This document shows, piece after piece, positions 5,497-29,825 of a stretch of DNA of 32,000 nt (the first letter of the stretch is position 1; each line of letters starts with the position of its first letter). The position numbers and the translations under genes are program-made. Below the pieces are notes generated by a model. The model was not told the origin of the DNA. It worked only from the letters and a program-made list of their open reading frames with translations, and searched no databases. Source of the DNA: Idiomarina loihiensis L2TR (GTDB lineage: Bacteria; Pseudomonadota; Gammaproteobacteria; Enterobacterales; Alteromonadaceae); assembly GCF_000008465.1 (NCBI RefSeq), contig NC_006512.1, positions 480,001-512,000 on the forward strand, given 5' to 3'.

Positions 5497-5523
5497 GTAG
5501 CCTGACATTTATGTCAGGTGAGG
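5497..5523 (+). repeat. REP unit (GTAG head + 18-nt hairpin), left half of an inverted REP doublet
   Basis: GTAGCCTGACATTTATGTCAGGTGAGG. Exact reverse complement lies at 5713-5738. Starts 7 nt after the cusA stop. Confidence 0.85.
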
Positions 5524-5673
5524 TGGAAGATAGCGAGCGCTGGAGGTTGCAGGAACCATTGAGGAGGACGCCCGTAAATACATCCCTGTAGGGCTTGGGC
5601 AGCGCCATCCATGGCGCCGCACACCTCCTCAATGGTTCGCCGCAACCGTCGGGCGCGCTCACTATCTGCCACC
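5522..5673 (-). repeat. Family-A structured repeat, copy A1 (nested between two REPs); strand given is the inferred core-sense strand
   Basis: Conserved core GACGCCCGTAAATACATCCCTGTAGGGCTTGGGCAGCGCCATCCATGGCGCCGCACAC. Flanked by self-complementary arms: GGTGGAAGATAGCGAGCGC...GAACCATTGAGGAGG pairs with CCTCCTCAATGGTTC...GCGCGCTCACTATCTGCCACC. Confidence 0.9.
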
Positions 5674-5712: not shown

Positions 5713-5738
5713 CTCACCTGACATAAATGTCAGGCTAC
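5713..5738 (-). repeat. REP unit, right half of inverted REP doublet
   Basis: CTCACCTGACATAAATGTCAGGCTAC is the exact reverse complement of 5497-5522. A degenerate REP-like CACCTGACGCAAACTGCACC lies at about 5675-5695. Confidence 0.85.
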
Positions 5739-11026: not shown

Positions 11027-13615
11027 GTGCTTAAAGAATATCGTCAGCACGTAGAAGAGCGCGCCGCAGAAGGCATCCCTCCGAAGCCATTAAATGCCGA
11101 GCAAGTAGCCGATTTAGTGGAATTACTGAAAAATCCCCCAGCAGGCGAGGAAGACTTCCTGGTTGAGCTGCTGGCCGAGCGTGTACCGCCGGGCGTGGAT
11201 GAAGCAGCCTATGTTAAAGCAGGCTTTTTAAGCGCCGTTGTTAAGGGCGAAATTGAAAGTCCGGTTGTGAGTAAAGAATACGCAGTGAAGCTGTTGGGCA
11301 ATATGCACGGCGGTTACAACATCGTCACTTTGGTGGAATTGCTGGACGACTCTCAGCTGGCTGAACTGGCGGCAAAAGAACTGAAAGAAACCATCTTAAT
11401 GTTCGACGCTTTCCACGACGTGGAAGAGAAAATGAAAGCCGGTAATGCGCTGGCGAAAGAAGTGGTTGAATCCTGGGCCAATGCTGAATGGTTTACCAAC
11501 AGCGACGAGCTGGCTAAGTCCATTAAAGCAACTGTCTTTAAAGTGACTGGCGAAACCAATACCGATGATCTGTCTCCGGCACCAGATGCATGGTCTCGTC
11601 CGGACATTCCTTTGCATGCTAAAGCGATGTACAAAATGCCACGCGAAGGCATTACCGATGCGGGCAAGCAGATTGAAGAATTAAAAGAAAAAGGTCACCC
11701 GGTTGCCTTCGTTGGCGACGTAGTGGGTACCGGTTCTTCACGGAAATCAGCGACCAACTCGGTATTGTGGAACATCGGCGAAGACATGCCGGGCACACCG
11801 AACAAACGTGCCGGCGGTATCTGCATCGGTTCTAAAGTTGCGCCTATTTTCTTCAATACCATGAAAGACGCAGGTGCGTTGGTGTTTGAAGCCGACGTTG
11901 AAAAAATGAACATGGGCGATGTCATCACTATCTACCCATACGAAGGCAAAATCGAGAACGAAGCCGGCGAAATTATCGCTGAATACGATTATGCGTCCCG
12001 CGTCATTCTGGATGAAGTCCGTGCCGGTGGCCGTATTAACCTGATCATTGGTCGTGGCCTGACAGAAAAAGCACGTGAATCTCTGGGCATGGGTCCATCA
12101 GACTTATTCCGTAAGCCAGAGCAACCGGCAGACAGCGGTAAAGGTTTCTCGCTGGCGCAGAAGTTGGTCGGTAAAGCTTGTGGTATGGAAGGTGTTCGTC
12201 CGGGCGCTTATTGCGAACCTAAGATGACCACTGTCGGCTCTCAGGACACTACCGGTCCTATGACTCGTGACGAACTAAAAGACCTGGCATGCCTTGGTTT
12301 TAACTCAGACTTAGTTATGCAGTCGTTCTGCCACACCGCCGCTTATCCTAAGCCCGTTGACGTTGAAACTCAGCACACCTTGCCTGACTTTATCATGAAC
12401 CGTGGCGGCGTAAGTTTGCGTCCTGGCGACGGTATCATCCACAGCTGGTTGAACCGTATGTTGTTGCCAGACACAGTTGGTACTGGTGGCGATTCGCACA
12501 CGCGTTTCCCGCTGGGCATTTCATTCCCGGCAGGCTCTGGTCTGGTCGCGTTCGCTGCAGCTACCGGTGTTATGCCGCTGGATATGCCTGAATCTGTATT
12601 GGTGCGCTTTAAAGGTGAAATGCAGCCGGGTATCACCCTGCGTGACTTAGTTCATGCCATTCCTGCATTCGCTATCAAAGAAGGTCACCTGACCGTTGAT
12701 AAGCGTGGCAAGAAGAACATTTTCTCAGGTCGTATCTTAGAAATTGAAGGTCTTGATCACTTAACCGTTGAGCAGGCATTTGAATTGTCTGATGCTTCTG
12801 CTGAGCGTTCTGCTGCCGGTTGTACCATCGATTTGTCTGAAGAGTCGGTTGCCGAGTACCTGCGTTCAAACATCACTATGCTGCGTTGGATGATCAACGA
12901 AGGCTACGGCGATGCGCGTACGTTGGAGCGTCGTGCCCGTAAGATGGAAGAATGGTTAGAGAACCCGCAGCTAACGCGTGCCGACAAAGATGCCGACTAT
13001 TCTACGGTTATCGAAATTGACCTGAACGACATTAAAGAGCCTATCGTTTGCTGCCCGAACGACCCGGACGACGCGAAGTTCCTGAGCGAAGTTTCAGGTA
13101 ATAACGTTGATGAAGTCTTCATTGGTTCGTGCATGACCAACATTGGTCACTTCCGTGCGGCGGGTAAATTGTTAGAGAAAAACTCTGACCCATTAAATAC
13201 CCGTTTGTGGATTGCACCACCAACGAAAATGGACAAAGCGCAGCTGGAAGTTGAAGGGTATTACGACATTTATGAGCGTAATGGCGTTCGTACCGAAATG
13301 CCGGGTTGTTCACTGTGTATGGGTAACCAGGCACGGGTAGAACCGGGCGCAACGGTGCTGTCTACCTCAACCCGTAACTTCCCGAACCGTTTGGGTGATG
13401 GCGCTAACGTTTACCTGACTTCTGCAGAGCTTGCCGCTGTCGGTGCAATTGTTGGTCGTCTGCCAACACCGGAAGAATACCTGGAGTACGCACAGGACAT
13501 CAACTCAATGGCTGGCGAAGTCTATAAATACCTGAACTTCGACCAGATGGATGCCTTCCGCGACGCAGAAAAAGCGGCCAAGGAAAACATCATCCCAACC
13601 ATCAACGTGGCTTAA
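11027..13615 (+). CDS. acnB: Aconitate hydratase B / 2-methylisocitrate dehydratase
   Basis: 862 aa with a GTG start. Collinear with E. coli AcnB from MLxEYRxH to the end. Conserved blocks [48 protein letters not shown] and [11 protein letters not shown]. Confidence 0.95.
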
Positions 13616-13744
13616 TGAGTGCTTAGGTTGCAAGGACTCTTTACGAGGACGCCCGCAAGTACTTCCCTGTAGGGCTTGGGCAGCGCCATCCATGGCGCTG
13701 CACACCTCGTTAAGAGTCCTCGCAACCGTTGATCGCACTCATTA
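13613..13744 (-). repeat. Family-A structured repeat, copy A2; its first bases are the acnB stop codon
   Basis: Same core as A1 (GACGCCCGCAAGTACTTCCCTGTAGGGCTTGGGCAGCGCCATCCATGGCGCTGCACAC). Different but self-complementary arms: TAATGAGTGC/GCACTCATTA and AGGACTCTTTACGAGG/CCTCGTTAAGAGTCCT. Confidence 0.9.
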
Positions 13745-13754
13745 GCAATTTATA

Positions 13755-13777
13755 AAACCGCTTCGGCGGTTTTTTTG
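13755..13777 (+). terminator. Rho-independent terminator downstream of acnB and A2
   Basis: AAAACCGC-TTCG-GCGGTTTT stem-loop followed by a T-run (13770-13776). Confidence 0.75.
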
Positions 13778-13790
13778 TGTCCGATATTCA

Positions 13791-13816
13791 GTAGCCTGAT
13801 GTTCACATCAGGTGGG
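13791..13816 (+). repeat. Solitary REP unit
   Basis: GTAGCCTGATGTTCACATCAGGTGGG: GTAG head plus an 18-nt hairpin (CCTGATG-TTCA-CATCAGG). Confidence 0.8.
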
Positions 13817-13865: not shown

Positions 13866-14027
13866 GGGGCAGGTTCTTCACTTATGAGCGTTATGAGTGT
13901 TGAGTACTTCTGTGGCGGAGTGTCGAAGGCCATGGAAGGCCTTCGTCAAGCCCTCATGGATGAGCTCGTAGCGTCTCCGTCACAGAAGTACTCAATGCTC
14001 AAGCGAAATAAGTGAAGAACCTGCCCC
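13866..14027 (+). repeat. Family-C structured repeat, copy C1 (about 162-nt long hairpin with a conserved core)
   Basis: GGGGCAGGTTCTTCACTT...AAGTGAAGAACCTGCCCC outer 18-bp stem. Inner stem of about 26 bp (3 G-T). Core GGAG-TGT-CGAAGGCC-ATGGAA-GGCCTTCG-TCAAGCCCT-CATGGATGAGCTCGTA-GCGTCTCC. Confidence 0.9.
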
Positions 14028-18444: not shown

Positions 18445-18650
18445 GCTTTCAGCAATCCGCTCTTGAAAATATTGGGGCGGGCCAGCATTGGCTGGCCATT
18501 GCAGGTTATCTTCCGAAAGACGCCTGCAAGTACGTCCCTGTAAGGCTTGGGCAGCGCCATCCTTGGCGCTGCACACTTTCTCCAGATAACCCACAATGGC
18601 GTATCGCCAATACTGACCACCCCCAATACTTCCACGCTATTTGCTGAAAG
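18445..18650 (-). repeat. Family-A structured repeat, copy A3 (divergent, longer arms); begins at the base after the mdh stop
   Basis: Core GACGCCTGCAAGTACGTCCCTGTAAGGCTTGGGCAGCGCCATCCTTGGCGCTGCACAC. Arms are unrelated in sequence to A1/A2/A4 but self-complementary: CTTTCAGCAA/TTGCTGAAAG, ATTGGGG/CCCCAAT, GGTTATCT/AGATAACC. Confidence 0.85.
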
Positions 18651-18654
18651 TTAT

Positions 18655-18663
18655 GTAGCCTGA
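18655..18663 (+). repeat. Left fragment of a REP unit split by the IS
   Basis: GTAGCCTGA. It continues at 20046 (CGTTCACGTCAGG), reconstituting GTAG plus an 18-nt hairpin. Confidence 0.8.
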
Positions 18664-18748
18664 TGAGATGGTCCCCTCCCTCCTAAGCGGCATCGCAATG
18701 TGCCAATATAGAGGTTCAAGCTTCTATAGAACAGAGTGGAGAGGACCA

Positions 18749-19780
18749 ATGGCTATTGTAAACAGAATTGCCCTGGATTTGGCAAAGGATTTTATTCAGG
18801 TTTTGGCGCTGGATGAAAATGAGCAGGAAGTTTTTAATAAAAAACTGCGCAGCAATAAAGTGTTAGCGAAGCTGGCGACGCTGAGCCGTACGGATGACTG
18901 TGAAGTAGCGGTTGAGTCCTGCGGCATGAGTCATTACTGGCGCCGCGAATGTGAAAAGCTGGGTTATAAAACGGTGGCGTTGCCACCGCGTTTCGTCAAA
19001 GCGTACCTGCAGGGTGAGAAGAACGATGCGAATGACGCCCGGGCAATAGCCGAGGCGGCATCACGACCCAACCGTCAGACGGTCAGGCTGAAAAGCATTG
19101 AGCAGCAGGACTTAGCATTGATGGTCAATCAGCGGGAAGGCTTCGTGCAGACGAGAACGCAGTTCTCGAATAGGTTGCGGGGGCAACTGGCCGAATACGG
19201 CATTCTTTTACCGAAGCGAGTCGGTACGATATTACAGAGAGTACCGGAGGTACTGGAAGACGACAGCAATGCGCTGACGCTTCAGTCACGGGACCTCATC
19301 AACCGGCTCTATCAGATGCTGCGAGCGGTGGATGAAGAAGTTAAAGCGCTGGATAAGCACTTAGCGACACAGGCCGAAAGGAATGAAGACAGTCAGCGGC
19401 TGATGACCCTGCCGGGTATCGGACCGATAACAGCGACCTCGCTGCTGGCACTGATAGGTGATGTGAGTGAATTTAAACGCGGCCGCAACCTGTCGGAATA
19501 CCTGGGACTGGTACCACGGCAAAACAGCAGTGGCGGTAAAGACCGTTTAGGCGGTATTACCAAAAAAGGGAACACCAAACTCAGGACACTGCTGGTGCAT
19601 GGCGCCCGCTCGGCACTGCGGGTGGCACAACAGCGCCACGACAGGCTGAGCCTCTGGGCACAGGATGTCGCTAAACGCAGAGGCAACAACGTTGCAGCGG
19701 TGGCACTGGCTAACAAGCACGCCCGGATAATCTGGGCGATGTTAAAGAATAAAGAAGATTACCGGATGACTGCTGCTTAA
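18749..19780 (+). CDS. IS110-family (DEDD/RuvC-like + Tnp domain) transposase/recombinase
   Basis: Start at MAIVNRIALDLAKDF, with a GGAGAGG SD 5 nt upstream. The ORF-track start at 18668 reads through the terminal IR and is unlikely. Motifs: ALDLAK, VESCGMSHYW, KNDANDARAIAEA, LPGIGPITATSLLALIGD, VPRQNSSGGKDRLGGITKKGN. Confidence 0.9.
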   Translation: MAIVNRIALDLAKDFIQVLALDENEQEVFNKKLRSNKVLAKLATLSRTDDCEVAVESCGMSHYWRRECEKLGYKTVALPPRFVKAYLQGEKNDANDARAIAEAASRPNRQTVRLKSIEQQDLALMVNQREGFVQTRTQFSNRLRGQLAEYGILLPKRVGTILQRVPEVLEDDSNALTLQSRDLINRLYQMLRAVDEEVKALDKHLATQAERNEDSQRLMTLPGIGPITATSLLALIGDVSEFKRGRNLSEYLGLVPRQNSSGGKDRLGGITKKGNTKLRTLLVHGARSALRVAQQRHDRLSLWAQDVAKRRGNNVAAVALANKHARIIWAMLKNKEDYRMTAA

Positions 19781-20045
19781 CAGCATTCAGTAAAAGAGCA
19801 CAGCGAAGGTTCATTCCTTCCGGGAGTTGCAAACGTCAACAGGATGGTAAAATAGGGTAAACCGACGACAACTGAGACTGTTGAACGTCCGTACATAAAG
19901 TACGTTAGCCTGATAAGCCAGTTGTCGTGCGGAGTTCATCCAGGCCAGGTGCGCAAAGCGCGCACCATAAACAGGCCGTATATATGCGAGCGCCCCGACA
20001 TTTACCACGAGTTGCCGTTGCAAAACGGGAGGGGACCATATATGA
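19781..20045 (+). ncRNA. Candidate bridge/seek guide RNA region in the IS 3' non-coding end (target-binding module at 19862-19932)
   Basis: Stem 19862-19874/19919-19932 encloses an internal loop and hairpin 19890-19904. Loop side 1, TGAACGTC (19882-19889), is the reverse complement of the right flank GACGTTCA (20044-20051). Loop side 2, TAGCCTGAT (19906-19914), is identical to the left flank (18656-18664). Transcript ends and the donor-binding module are not resolved. Confidence 0.5.
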
Positions 20046-20046: not shown

Positions 20047-20100
20047 GTTCACGTCAGGAGTTATCTTTGGACTTTCCACCTGATGTGAATATCAGGCTAC
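20046..20100. repeat. Right fragment of the split REP plus its intact inverted partner REP (REP doublet)
   Basis: CGTTCACGTCAGG (20046-20058) ... CACCTGATGTGAATATCAGGCTAC (20077-20100), which is the reverse complement of GTAGCCTGATATTCACATCAGGTG. Confidence 0.8.
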
Positions 20101-20111
20101 GAAAATGGTTG

Positions 20112-20275
20112 GAGGGCAGGTTGCTCACTTGTGAGCGTTACGAGTGTTGATAGCTTCTGTAGCGGAGTGTCGAAGGCCAGGGATGGCCTTCGTCAAGCCC
20201 TCATGGATGAGCTCGTAGCGTCTCCGCTACAGAAGCTATCAATGCTCAAGCGAAACAAGTGAGCAATCTGCCCTC
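20112..20275 (+). repeat. Family-C structured repeat, copy C2
   Basis: Same architecture as C1, with compensatory arm changes: GGTTGCTCACTT/AAGTGAGCAATC and GATAGCTTCTGTAGCGGAG/CTCCGCTACAGAAGCTATC. Hairpin loop is AGGGAT. Confidence 0.9.
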
Positions 20276-20276
20276 T

Positions 20277-20337
20277 CCCAAGCCCTACAGGGAAGTACTT
20301 GGGGGCGTCCTCCGAAACAGAACCCGCTCCCCCAAGG
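20277..20337 (+). repeat. Partial family-A copy (core 3' half + one arm), opposite orientation to A1-A5, fused to the end of C2
   Basis: CCCAAGCCCTACAGGGAAGTACTTGGGGGCGTCCTCC... equals the reverse complement of the A core from GGGCTTGGG leftwards. Ends 7 nt before the ispB stop. Confidence 0.8.
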
Positions 20338-22199: not shown

Positions 22200-23415
<1,216 letters not shown>

Positions 23416-27896: not shown

Positions 27897-27903
27897 CGGG
27901 GCT

Positions 27904-28040
27904 GAATAGCGAGCGCTGAGGTTACAAGGGCCATTGTGGAGGACGCCCGTAAATACATCCCTGTAGGGCTTGGGCAGCGCCATCCATGGCGCTGCACACC
28001 TCCACAATAGCCCTGTGTAACCGTCGGCGCGCTCACTATC
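27904..28040 (-). repeat. Family-A structured repeat, copy A4
   Basis: Core identical to A1 except at 1 position. Arms GAATAGCGAGCGC...GGGCCATTGTGGAGG / CCTCCACAATAGCCC...GCGCGCTCACTATC. Starts 8 nt after the permease stop. Confidence 0.9.
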
Positions 28041-28089
28041 TTCCGCTTTAGTTAAGAAGCCACTTAAGCCGTGATGAGAGAGATTAGAA

Positions 28090-28250
28090 GGGCAGGCTGT
28101 TCACTTGTGAGCGTTACGAGTGTTGAAAGCCTCTGTGGCGGAGTGTCGAAGGCCATGGATGGCCTTCGTCAAGCTCTCATGGATGAGCTCGTCGCGTCTC
28201 CGTCATAGAGGCTTTCAATGCTCAAGCGAAGCAAGTGAGCAGCCTGCCCC
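28090..28250 (+). repeat. Family-C structured repeat, copy C3
   Basis: GGGCAGGCTGTTCACTT...AAGTGAGCAGCCTGCCCC. Inner arms GAAAGCCTCTGTGGCGGAG/CTCCGTCATAGAGGCTTTC. Ends 9 nt before the stop of the minus-strand oxidoreductase gene. Confidence 0.9.
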
Positions 28251-28259
28251 TGTCCCCCC

Positions 28260-29579
28260 TCAGTCGCGTAGGCGGCCGTAGTGGTAGTAGAGCCATTGGC
28301 CGAGGCGGCGGAAGCGTGGTAATGGAAAGGGCTTTAGTTTTGACTGGTAGTACGGTAGCTCGGGCAGGTTTTTTTCCATGGCGGCTTCTGCCAGTCTTTG
28401 ACCGGCCAGGGCGGTAAAGCCAACACCGGCGCCGCAGTAACCCATGCTGGCGTAGATATTATCTTTCACTTTGCCTACTCGCGGGTAATCGTCCAGTGAC
28501 ACACTGACCCAGCCACTCCAGAAATACTCCCACTTGTTCACTTCTCGCAGTTGCGGGAAAGTCTGGTGTAATGCCTGCAGTAAGCGTTTAGCATATATCG
28601 GCTTCTCTGCGCTTTTCCCTTGAATGGCACCACGACCACCAAACAATAAGCGGTTATCGGGCAGTAAGCGGAAGTAATACTTCAGGATGCGTGTATCCAT
28701 TATGGCGTATTGAGGTGAAAGCTTAATACTCTCAACCTGTTCGTTACTCAGAGGTGGGGTGGTAATAATGCTTGAGAGTACCGGTAGCGAGCGGCTGGCA
28801 AGCTCCGGCAACAGTTTCCCTGAGGTATAGCCATTAGAACAAACCAACAGCTTACGGGCGCGTACAGAGCCTTTGGCGGTTTGCAGATACACTCCTTTGC
28901 CGCCAAGTGACACGGCCTGAGTTACCGGGCAGTGTTCAACTAATTGCGCACCAGCGGCAGTTGCCCTTCGCGCGGTAGCTGCTGCTAACAAAATGGGGTT
29001 AAGGGTAAAACAATCAGTAAAGCGTAATGCGGCATGGGCCTGTGGGCTTGAAATAAGCCCCGAGAGTTGATTTTGGGTGAGCCATTCAACGGGTTGATTA
29101 AACTTTTTAAGCTGCTCATATTGTTGTTTCAATGGTGCCACGGCGCTGTTGCGGTGCGCTATTTTCAGGTAGCCACCGTTTTGGCGCTGGCACTGCGAAG
29201 GGCAATAACGCAAAGTTTCTTCAACCAGTTGCAGTGCCTTTTGATGTTCATCGGCAATGTCTTGCGCAATGTCAGCACCAAGGCGTTCAGCCCAGGCCGA
29301 CAAGCCCAGTCGGCCGGTACTTTTCATCACAAACCCGGCATTACGCGACGAACAACCCCAGGCCAGTTGGTTGGCTTCAAAAACTGCAACAGAATGCCCA
29401 TTTTCGGCCAGAACCCGAGCCGCATTTAACCCCGTATAACCCGCACCAATAACAGCAAATTCGACTTCCTCCGGCGCATCCACACACTCCGGAAACTCGG
29501 CCTGCGTATGCTGCTGCCAATAACTAGGCTCAGGAGCATCATGAGGCCCCGGAGGCGCATTAACCAAAGGATCATACAT
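28260..29579 (-). CDS. FAD-dependent oxidoreductase (PuuB/OrdL-like, DAO family)
   Basis: Start at MYDPLVNAPP, with an AGGTGG SD upstream. The 44 further N-terminal codons in the ORF track are a read-through of repeat A5. Dinucleotide-binding motif FAVIGAGYTGLNAARVLAENG. Overall layout resembles E. coli PuuB. Confidence 0.8.
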   Translation of the reverse strand: MYDPLVNAPPGPHDAPEPSYWQQHTQAEFPECVDAPEEVEFAVIGAGYTGLNAARVLAENGHSVAVFEANQLAWGCSSRNAGFVMKSTGRLGLSAWAERLGADIAQDIADEHQKALQLVEETLRYCPSQCQRQNGGYLKIAHRNSAVAPLKQQYEQLKKFNQPVEWLTQNQLSGLISSPQAHAALRFTDCFTLNPILLAAATARRATAAGAQLVEHCPVTQAVSLGGKGVYLQTAKGSVRARKLLVCSNGYTSGKLLPELASRSLPVLSSIITTPPLSNEQVESIKLSPQYAIMDTRILKYYFRLLPDNRLLFGGRGAIQGKSAEKPIYAKRLLQALHQTFPQLREVNKWEYFWSGWVSVSLDDYPRVGKVKDNIYASMGYCGAGVGFTALAGQRLAEAAMEKNLPELPYYQSKLKPFPLPRFRRLGQWLYYHYGRLRD

Positions 29580-29608
29580 AAACACCCACCTATAAAACGG
29601 AGAGGGAA

Positions 29609-29744
29609 GACAGCGAGCGCTGAGGTTACAAGGGCTATTGTGGAGGACGCCCGTGAATACATCCGTGTAGGGCTTGGGCAGCGCCATCCATGGCGCTGCA
29701 CACCTCCACAATAGCCCTATGTAACCGTTGGCGCGCTCACTATC
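29609..29744 (-). repeat. Family-A structured repeat, copy A5 (in the leader of the oxidoreductase gene)
   Basis: Core GACGCCCGTGAATACATCCGTGTAGGGCTTGGGCAGCGCCATCCATGGCGCTGCACAC. Arms GACAGCGAGCGC...GGGCTATTGTGGAGG / CCTCCACAATAGCCC...GCGCGCTCACTATC. Confidence 0.9.
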
Positions 29745-29749
29745 TCCCG

Positions 29750-29825
29750 CCTCATGGATGAGCTCGTCGCGTCTCCGCCACAGAGGCCTTCAATGCTCAA
29801 GCGAAACAAGTGAGCAGTCTGCCCC
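29750..29825 (+). repeat. Family-C half copy C4 (3' part of core + right arms only)
   Basis: CTCATGGATGAGCTCGTCGCGTCTCCGCCACAGAGGCCTTCAATGCTCAAGCGAAACAAGTGAGCAGTCTGCCCC aligns with the right half of C1-C3. Confidence 0.85.

Follow-up and report, generated by a model that had tools for sequence, protein, structure and literature searches.

The Yersinia palindromic sequence YPAL, reportedly described by De Gregorio and colleagues in 2006, is also known as RU-2. It was described as a repeat of ~167 base pairs (bp) resembling a transposable element of the miniature inverted-repeat type (MITE) (Delihas 2007), of which about 60 copies are present in Y. pestis (Delihas review). According to the Delihas reviews it possesses internal inverted repeats and variable target duplications of 3-26 bp, has been mobile recently enough to leave both filled and empty sites, is inserted at or beside dyad symmetries, and is co-transcribed (the review's word is 'co-translated') with upstream genes, the stability of whose transcripts it 'might' affect. 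A second described motif, TwoAYGGAY (RF01731), takes its place beside YPAL here, and the taxa listed for it by Weinberg et al. (2010) include gamma-proteobacteria. The present analysis concerns a long hairpin, family C, which recurs between the genes of a stretch of 32,000 nucleotides (nt) of Idiomarina loihiensis L2TR (contig NC_006512.1, positions 480,001 to 512,000; hereafter the window, in which position 1 is the first letter). Family C is not a new kind of element; judged by the sequence of its core it very probably represents an Idiomarina branch of the YPAL/RU-2 palindromic repeats, bearing a tip of the TwoAYGGAY type.

The original prediction had described a hairpin of ~162 nt in three full copies (C1, C2 and C3) and one right half (C4, Table 1), and this was confirmed both by folding and by a repeat search of the window, which returned C1 at 13866-14026, C2 at 20113-20273 and C3 at 28089-28249 with identities of 88-100%. 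When folded as RNA, C1-C3 were compared with dinucleotide shuffles, which reached -49 to -58 kcal/mol, giving z values of -13.5 to -14.5, and none of 200 shuffles folded as well. Anatomy and compensation were scored on 20 distinct Idiomarina copies from about a dozen genomes, the loci of relatives that were compared with the window being labelled L001, L002 and so on. Among the four parts originally proposed, the inner stem of 26 pairs and the multiloop core stood as described, whereas the outer stem comprises 19 pairs in place of 18 and the internal loop is partly paired, with 4 pairs (CGUU/AGCG) located between a 3x2 loop and a 2x1 loop. On the strand whose terminal loops read GGA (hereafter the GGA strand), standard pairs fill 98.9% of the 1260 pair cells, and shifting the partner by 1-3 columns lowers pairing to 37-45%. 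The differences between copies are indeed compensated, as had been claimed, and the examples quoted in support (GGTTCTTCACTT/AAGTGAAGAACC and others) are found in the sequence as stated: 17 pairs are changed on both sides in the 20 copies as compared to 6.9 +/- 1.6 in shuffles, with 17 attained in 0 of 500. A 26-nt pattern representing the C core was found, across the species collection, in Idiomarina genomes only, with 23 occurrences at 20 loci and 1-4 per genome. Family C is a genuine, structured family that is subject to constraint.

The stem had been presented as the main feature and the core as a detail, an emphasis which has to be reversed, as the core recurs in YPAL, in the window's second repeat family (family D) and in a subfamily the arms of which are unrelated. 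Mean pairwise identity of the 62-nt C core was 97.7%, with just 6 of 62 columns variable, as compared to 83.6% for the outer stem and 72.9% for the variable part of the inner stem. The identical core, letter for letter, is carried on wholly different arms at another Idiomarina locus that is kept in six genomes (five full copies at L007, L012, L014, L017 and L019, and a copy at L021 that is cut short where the locus ends). It is the tip that forms the conserved common module, the stems being a fast-evolving scaffold that is kept paired; with the core conserved and the stems drifting, the question therefore shifts from a 'selfish hairpin' to the reader of the tip. The core consists of a GGAG(G)/(C)CUCC closing helix, a hairpin of 8-9 bp with an A-N-G-G-A-U loop, the linker YCAAGCCCU, a further short hairpin whose loop is of this kind too, and a tail ending in GCGUC. 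Nor are the C copies isolated, since beside each of them lies a member of family D carrying the same core in the opposite orientation. The window holds five full D copies and one half, forming hairpins of 136-205 nt, and the statement that all copies share one orientation is valid within family C only, the five D copies having the core on the other strand. Hairpin 1 of the D core ends in the loop AUGGAU and its second short hairpin in A-N-GGA-U; comparison of the C and D cores shows two-sided changes at four pairs in hairpin 1 and at three in the closing helix, with 96.6% of cells paired. Across 41 distinct cores, representing 82 loops, the first loop position is A throughout and GGA is retained in 80 loops, position 2 is U, G, C or A (a pyrimidine in 59 loops, G or A in the rest), and the last position is U in 78, C in three and A in one (Y in 81 of 82). 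On this comparison of cores and arms the superfamily of palindromic intergenic repeats is seen to have at least three subfamilies in Idiomarina, namely main C, the C variant with unrelated arms, and D. A covariance model, R1, which was built from 20 cores of Idiomarina only, detects eight full cores and two halves in the window.

A further observation was made on the internal loop of main family C, where a module is nearly invariant (95.9% identity; alignment A2 columns 25-42 and 131-146). In C1 this module occupies 13886-13907 and 13992-14007, reads UGAGCGUUAYGAGUGUUGA / UCAAUGCUCAAGCGAA and includes three conserved G-U pairs. D, the variant-arm subfamily and YPAL all lack it, and it may constitute a second recognition site.

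The assignment to YPAL is supported by matches of the Idiomarina-only model R1 outside the genus. R1 matches the YPAL copy of a Y. similis plasmid with 58.5 bits (E 5e-13), in an alignment where the closing helix is compensated, and a relative on an enterobacterial (E. coli) plasmid at 44.5 bits (E 2e-9), as well as three viral contigs. The published RU-2 sequence holds the same core (...CCGCGCC AAGGAT GGCGCGG CTCGAGCC TAC ATGGAT GTA TTTACGGCGTC...). Rfam files YPAL as RF02770 Ysr224, on the strand opposite to the GGA loops, and the Y. similis plasmid copy accordingly scores 133.9 bits with Ysr224 on the strand antisense to those loops; with permissive Rfam thresholds the D element that partners C3 matches Ysr224 on the expected strand (+, 26.3 bits) and TwoAYGGAY on the - strand (28.5 bits), whereas C has a weak match to Ysr224 only. 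Several of these scores tell against the assignment, as the Ysr224 gathering score of 70 bits is attained neither by D nor by C (14.1-19.1 bits), the TwoAYGGAY gathering score of 43 is not attained by D, the match of which spans the full model (E 0.02), and C gave zero TwoAYGGAY matches at E up to 5. YPAL itself gave zero TwoAYGGAY matches at E up to 0.1, and no Rfam family passed its curated threshold either in the window or in a set of 18 Idiomarina loci. As regards a known MITE of a known insertion sequence (IS), a match which the original prediction had considered, family C is homologous to the MITE-like YPAL/RU-2, but that family is one without a known parent IS. The YPAL/RU-2 'MITE', the RNA sequencing entry Ysr224 and the orphan motif TwoAYGGAY appear to be one thing, a link joining the three which was not found in the accessible literature.

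On plasmids, a YPAL relative of 75% identity was observed in Klebsiella, Citrobacter and E. coli (L028 at 1501-1664 and 16 further records), from which it follows that the family is plasmid-borne outside Yersinia; 15 of the 19 matching records are typed conjugative. The D-C3 pair (27900-28260) gave no plasmid match, the plasmids and the three viral contigs showing Yersinia-type YPAL only. On the Y. similis plasmid NZ_CP007231.1 a ryfA RNA (Rfam, 179.5 bits; L027 at 1191-1474) is located directly beside the YPAL copy at 1501-1668, with a hypothetical gene and the gene of a GNAT acetyltransferase on either side.

With respect to function, the best-supported working model is that of an RNA hairpin with two CsrA-type loops, the mechanism of which we infer as follows. 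The element would be transcribed when the flanking convergent genes read through, and would act as RNA; its long helix (roughly 30 to 75 bp) would form a highly stable 3'-end or processing structure, while the tip of the AUGGAU strand would offer two CA-NGGA-UG stem-loops as a two-site target for one CsrA dimer, such that the copies tether or titrate CsrA. The loops together with their closing pairs do read CA-NGGA-UG, and the GGA triplets are ~24 nt apart. CsrA/RsmE recognize the consensus (A/U)CANGGANG(U/A), and systematic evolution of ligands by exponential enrichment (SELEX) yielded the consensus RUACARGGAUGU. The core loops match the CsrA/RsmE consensus, hairpin 2 of D (CUACAGGGAUGUA) fits 11 of the 12 positions of the SELEX consensus, and the spacing of ~24 nt is within the range for two-site binding by a single CsrA dimer. 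TwoAYGGAY has been predicted to bind CsrA (Gardner and Eldai 2015, PMC4333381) and is likewise viewed as CsrA-binding in a 2021 bioRxiv survey; no experimental test of this prediction was found in the literature searched. Overall, we give the reading as a YPAL/TwoAYGGAY-type repeat acting as an RNA hairpin with two CsrA-type loops an even chance of being correct. Taken separately, the proposition that the element works as RNA on the GGA strand falls a little short of even, and CsrA as the candidate ligand of the tip is rated lower still.

The strand that is of importance was deduced from pairing. When the same C helices are read on the reverse complement, 91.1% of cells are paired as compared to the 98.9% of the GGA strand, and in a subset of 17 C copies 15 columns contained G-U variants against 3 with A-C variants, the corresponding numbers for family D being 11 and 4. 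Since this bias is shared by two families located on opposite strands, a mutation bias of the replication strands is insufficient to cause the G-U excess and was ruled out, while deamination acting on the adjacent gene's non-transcribed strand would be expected to produce the opposite bias. What stays paired is the GGA strand in its single-stranded form, which could be either RNA or DNA.

A number of findings weigh against the RNA/CsrA model. Viewed in the GGA orientation, the element has its 3' side against the stop codon of a convergent gene in 42 of the 47 instances that could be scored, equivalent to 10 of 11 distinct loci, which means that the nearest gene transcribes the element antisense, with AUCCAU loops, and GGA-strand RNA would arise only by read-through from the far gene past the partner hairpin. 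The Ysr224 entry, a small RNA (sRNA) of Yersinia, is annotated on the antisense strand; consensus scans detected neither a sigma-70-type promoter nor an own terminator beside C1, C2 and C3; and at the acnB locus a terminator is positioned between D and C1. In addition, two GGA sites per copy are few for a CsrA sponge, some of the 'compensatory' differences may derive from gene conversion of whole hairpins, not from stepwise change, and the strand asymmetry fits a single-stranded DNA intermediate equally. The antisense placement is the main weakness of the RNA/CsrA model and at the same time the main support for oriented insertion at the DNA level.

A serious rival is therefore a single-stranded-DNA transposition signal, although we regard it as rather unlikely. 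In this explanation the core would be the recognition and cleavage module for a transposition machinery which is provided in trans and which deals with one strand of the DNA in hairpin form, as is known for IS200/IS605 TnpA and for RAYT, which is associated with repetitive extragenic palindromic (REP) sequences; the long stem and the tolerance of G-T would reflect the single-stranded intermediate, and the orientation would reflect insertion into terminators or REP dyads. The explanation is favoured by the arrangement of the copies, which are multiple and nested in or beside REP pairs and each other, adjoining dyad symmetries in the form of REP pairs, terminators or one another: the D element at 5522-5671 lies between inverted REPs, C2 lies beside a REP doublet, and in L010 C1 lies between REP(+) and REP(-). 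Head-to-head C-D pairs ~200 nt apart were observed at at least 12 loci, and the D partner of C3 lies 42 nt upstream of it. The strict orientation relative to the adjacent gene, at an element-to-stop distance of 0-104 nt (typically 4-47), points the same way; the 3' end of C1 is 24 nt from the stop of a DUF885 gene (- strand), and C3 is 10 nt away from the stop of a gene for a flavin adenine dinucleotide (FAD)-dependent oxidase (- strand). The dynamics of the sites may be read likewise. A D-C pair is flipped between species at two intergenic sites, and each of the three truncations has its break within the core, either at hairpin 1 or directly behind it. The ispB site is occupied by a full C2 and the right half of D' in the window and its closest relatives, as opposed to the left half of C2 and a full D' in L003, L010 and I. 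abyssalis (L011), while the site orthologous to that of C4 holds a full copy in L015, L018, L023 and L025. The failure to find a promoter and the strand asymmetry, which suits a one-strand intermediate as well as it suits RNA, are consistent with a DNA-level element, as are the target duplications, dyad insertion and filled and empty sites reported for YPAL.

Against such an element stands the fact that the sole transposase candidate of the window is an IS110-family gene, the target of which is the REP sequence and not C. No direct repeats indicative of target-site duplication were seen flanking C1-C3, and no clean empty site was found at the Idiomarina loci compared. Idiomarina copies occupy orthologous sites across several species and keep their pairing there, which would require selection in place or repeated conversion. 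Finally, coincidence would have to be invoked for both loops matching the independently derived CsrA consensus and for the recurrence of the motif, as TwoAYGGAY, in Clostridiales.

The original prediction also considered a hairpin of RNase III or 3'-end type, or else a palindrome prone to form cruciforms, which is a reasonable idea. Its RNA form, a purely structural hairpin of 3' untranslated regions that serves as an exonuclease barrier, a bidirectional stop or an RNase III substrate and whose GGA loops bind some partner that is not CsrA or serve just to stabilise the tip, is in our view unlikely. The C helices fold to -102 to -114 kcal/mol on either strand, and the elements are situated between convergent genes, 0-100 nt from the stops, where they are often the only terminator-like feature of the spacer. 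Among known repeats, ERIC is reported to be co-transcribed with its neighbours and, as an RNA stem-loop, to affect the stability of upstream mRNA, NEMIS/Correia repeats are proposed to be RNase III substrates through which adjacent mRNAs are regulated, YPAL 'might' affect transcript stability, and the sRNA fragment Ysr224 corresponds to a part of an antisense-oriented YPAL. A structural hairpin leaves unexplained, however, that the tip is far more conserved than the helix, that it is kept across Idiomarina, Yersinia and enterobacterial plasmids, that GGA is fixed beside a free neighbouring base, and that one strand pairs better than the other.

Two further explanations fare worse. Stand-alone sRNA genes of the CsrB/RsmZ type, with each C copy having a promoter and terminator of its own and serving as a CsrA sponge, would account for the GGA loops being on one strand, and TwoAYGGAY is included in the Rfam clan CL00106, the clan of the Csr/Rsm RNAs; this is nevertheless very improbable, given that promoter- and terminator-like sites were not found, that a copy has only two GGA loops, that no common conserved sequence is present upstream of C1, C2 and C3 outside the hairpin, and that D lies only 42 nt upstream of C3. 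A small protein gene, with 19-27 residues (MDGLRQALMDELVASPPQRPSMLKRNK) specified jointly by the core and the right arm from a frame that is open and preceded by GGAG in C1 and C3, much as Delihas proposed for reading frames of RU-2, where a 56-aa frame is reported, is hardly credible and was rejected, because the first ATG is gone in C2 and several other copies (CCAGGGATGG, CCAAGGATGG), the changes of the right arm are mirrored in the untranslated left arm and so follow pairing and not codons, and the tail in the variant subfamily would be unrelated.

Returning to the RNA/CsrA model, the sequence patterns leave room for a wider proposal, which we consider improbable, that mobile repeats (YPAL, C/D and the TwoAYGGAY of Clostridiales) carry into one intergenic region after another a module that offers two CsrA-binding sites ready-made. 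If this were true, the repeats would together set the pool of free CsrA, or would put read-in transcripts under CsrA control, and the strict antisense placement would be the footprint of selection on which transcripts carry the decoy. If only the ordinary reading holds, the element is another lineage-specific intergenic repeat.

The copies of both families and of the REP sequences in the window are listed in Table 1. The flanking genes (DUF885, GNAT, LysR, acnB, mdh and ispB) are ordinary, and for this reason were rejected as partner proteins of the element. Located 3' of acnB and its D element, at 13754-13780, is an intrinsic terminator (AAAACCGCTTCGGCGGTTTT with a T run behind it), which separates this D from C1 and may be bidirectional because it has A/T flanks on both sides. 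Two D-C pairs of like orientation stand on either side of the gene for the FAD-dependent oxidase (28260-29711, -); as the two D copies are 96% identical, a duplication at this place, or a gene conversion involving the spacers that flank the gene, is suggested.

Table 1. Positions in the window of the C and D elements, their halves and the REP sequences, with core positions, scores of model R1 and folding energies of the C copies
Feature	Position	Strand	Core	R1 (bits)	Folding (kcal/mol)	Remarks
C1	13866-14027	+	13917-13978	80.8	-110.5	full long-hairpin element
C2	20112-20275	+	20164-20225	84.3	-114.4	full long-hairpin element
C3	28089-28250	+	28140-28201	81.8	-111.5	full long-hairpin element
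C4	29751-29825	+		17.4 (partial)		right half of a C element; starts within the core, directly after the CAAGC linker
D	27908-28046	-	27939-28002	82.0		head-to-head partner of C3; shorter stem; 136-nt hairpin
D	29612-29750	-	29643-29706	83.0		abuts the C4 half; 96% identical to D 27908-28046
D	13614-13752	-	13645-13708	76.2		begins at the acnB stop codon
D-type	18446-18650	-	18516-18579	74.5		very long stem, 205-nt hairpin; begins 2 nt past the mdh stop codon
D	5522-5671	-	5564-5627	79.0		inside an inverted REP pair (5498-5518 +, 5717-5737 -)
D'	20277-20336	+		17.4 (partial)		right half of D-type, between C2 and the ispB stop; starts at the core linker CCAAGCCCT
REP	5498-5518	+
REP	5717-5737	-
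REP	13792-13812	+
REP	20079-20099	-
REP	23361-23381	+
REP	23394-23414	-
REP	18656/20044					copy split by the IS110-family element

The REP family, which consists of a GTAG head and the palindrome CCTGAYRTTYAYRTCAGG and often forms inverted doublets, gave 6 matches in the window where 0 were expected, and is both a neighbour of C and D and the target of an IS110-family element. The latter, an IS of the IS110/IS1111 type of ~1.38 kb at 18664-20043 with its transposase gene at 18668-19780, is inserted in a REP palindrome (tagcctga^cgttcacgtcagg) with GA at both sides; L003 has it at this site, and the metagenome relatives L001 and L002 do not. A segment of its 3' non-coding part, TAGCCTGAT (19906-19914), is identical to the left target flank (18656-18664) and would look like the guide of a bridge or seek RNA. 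That C2 itself might be part of the IS110-family element, as a bridge or seek RNA, was rejected, C2 being in place in relatives that lack the IS; identity as a classical MITE of a known IS was similarly rejected, as the only IS of the window has other ends and targets REP.

Comparison with known systems places C and D among the intergenic hairpin repeats and closest to YPAL. REP sequences and REPINs, which are mobilised by RAYT, resemble C/D in being intergenic palindromes that form inverted pairs and hairpins, but in REPINs the arms are conserved and the loop is free, while C/D have a conserved tip on arms that vary freely, and C has no GTAG head; identity as a REPIN or as an integron attC was rejected, the conserved parts being wrongly placed. 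Correia/NEMIS and ERIC are likewise repeats of 100-170 bp, but they have TA termini and a TA duplication, both of which are lacking in C/D, they have no sequence in common with C/D, and they have no conserved two-loop tip. TwoAYGGAY resembles D in its long enclosing stem, its two terminal loops of the AYGGAY kind, the CAAG between the hairpins and the CGUC after them, and the two loops (as A-N-G-G-A-Y) and the enclosing long stem are present in both C and D cores, which differ from it in that just 59 of 82 loops have Y at position 2 and in a second hairpin that falls well short of the one in the Rfam consensus. YPAL/RU-2 is intergenic, multi-copy, not A+T-rich and placed by dyad symmetries, and forms a long hairpin with a two-hairpin core, all as in C/D; its size class of one long hairpin of about 130-170 bp fits the 162 nt of C, while the arm sequences are unrelated. 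The placing of the Idiomarina copies 0-100 nt past stop codons would be compatible with the co-transcription described for YPAL. The C subfamily is unlike YPAL in its shortened second hairpin (CUC-AUGGAU-GAG), its other tail and its own invariant internal-loop module. The Idiomarina copies further differ from YPAL in that no target-site duplication was seen, in their frequent head-to-head C-D pairs and their orthologous sites across species, and in number, with 1-4 occurrences of the exact C-core pattern per Idiomarina genome as compared to ~60 YPAL copies in Y. pestis. Being few, located at orthologous sites, and subject to a strand preference and an orientation rule, the Idiomarina copies make the choice between RNA (CsrA) and single-stranded DNA a tractable one for this class of repeats.

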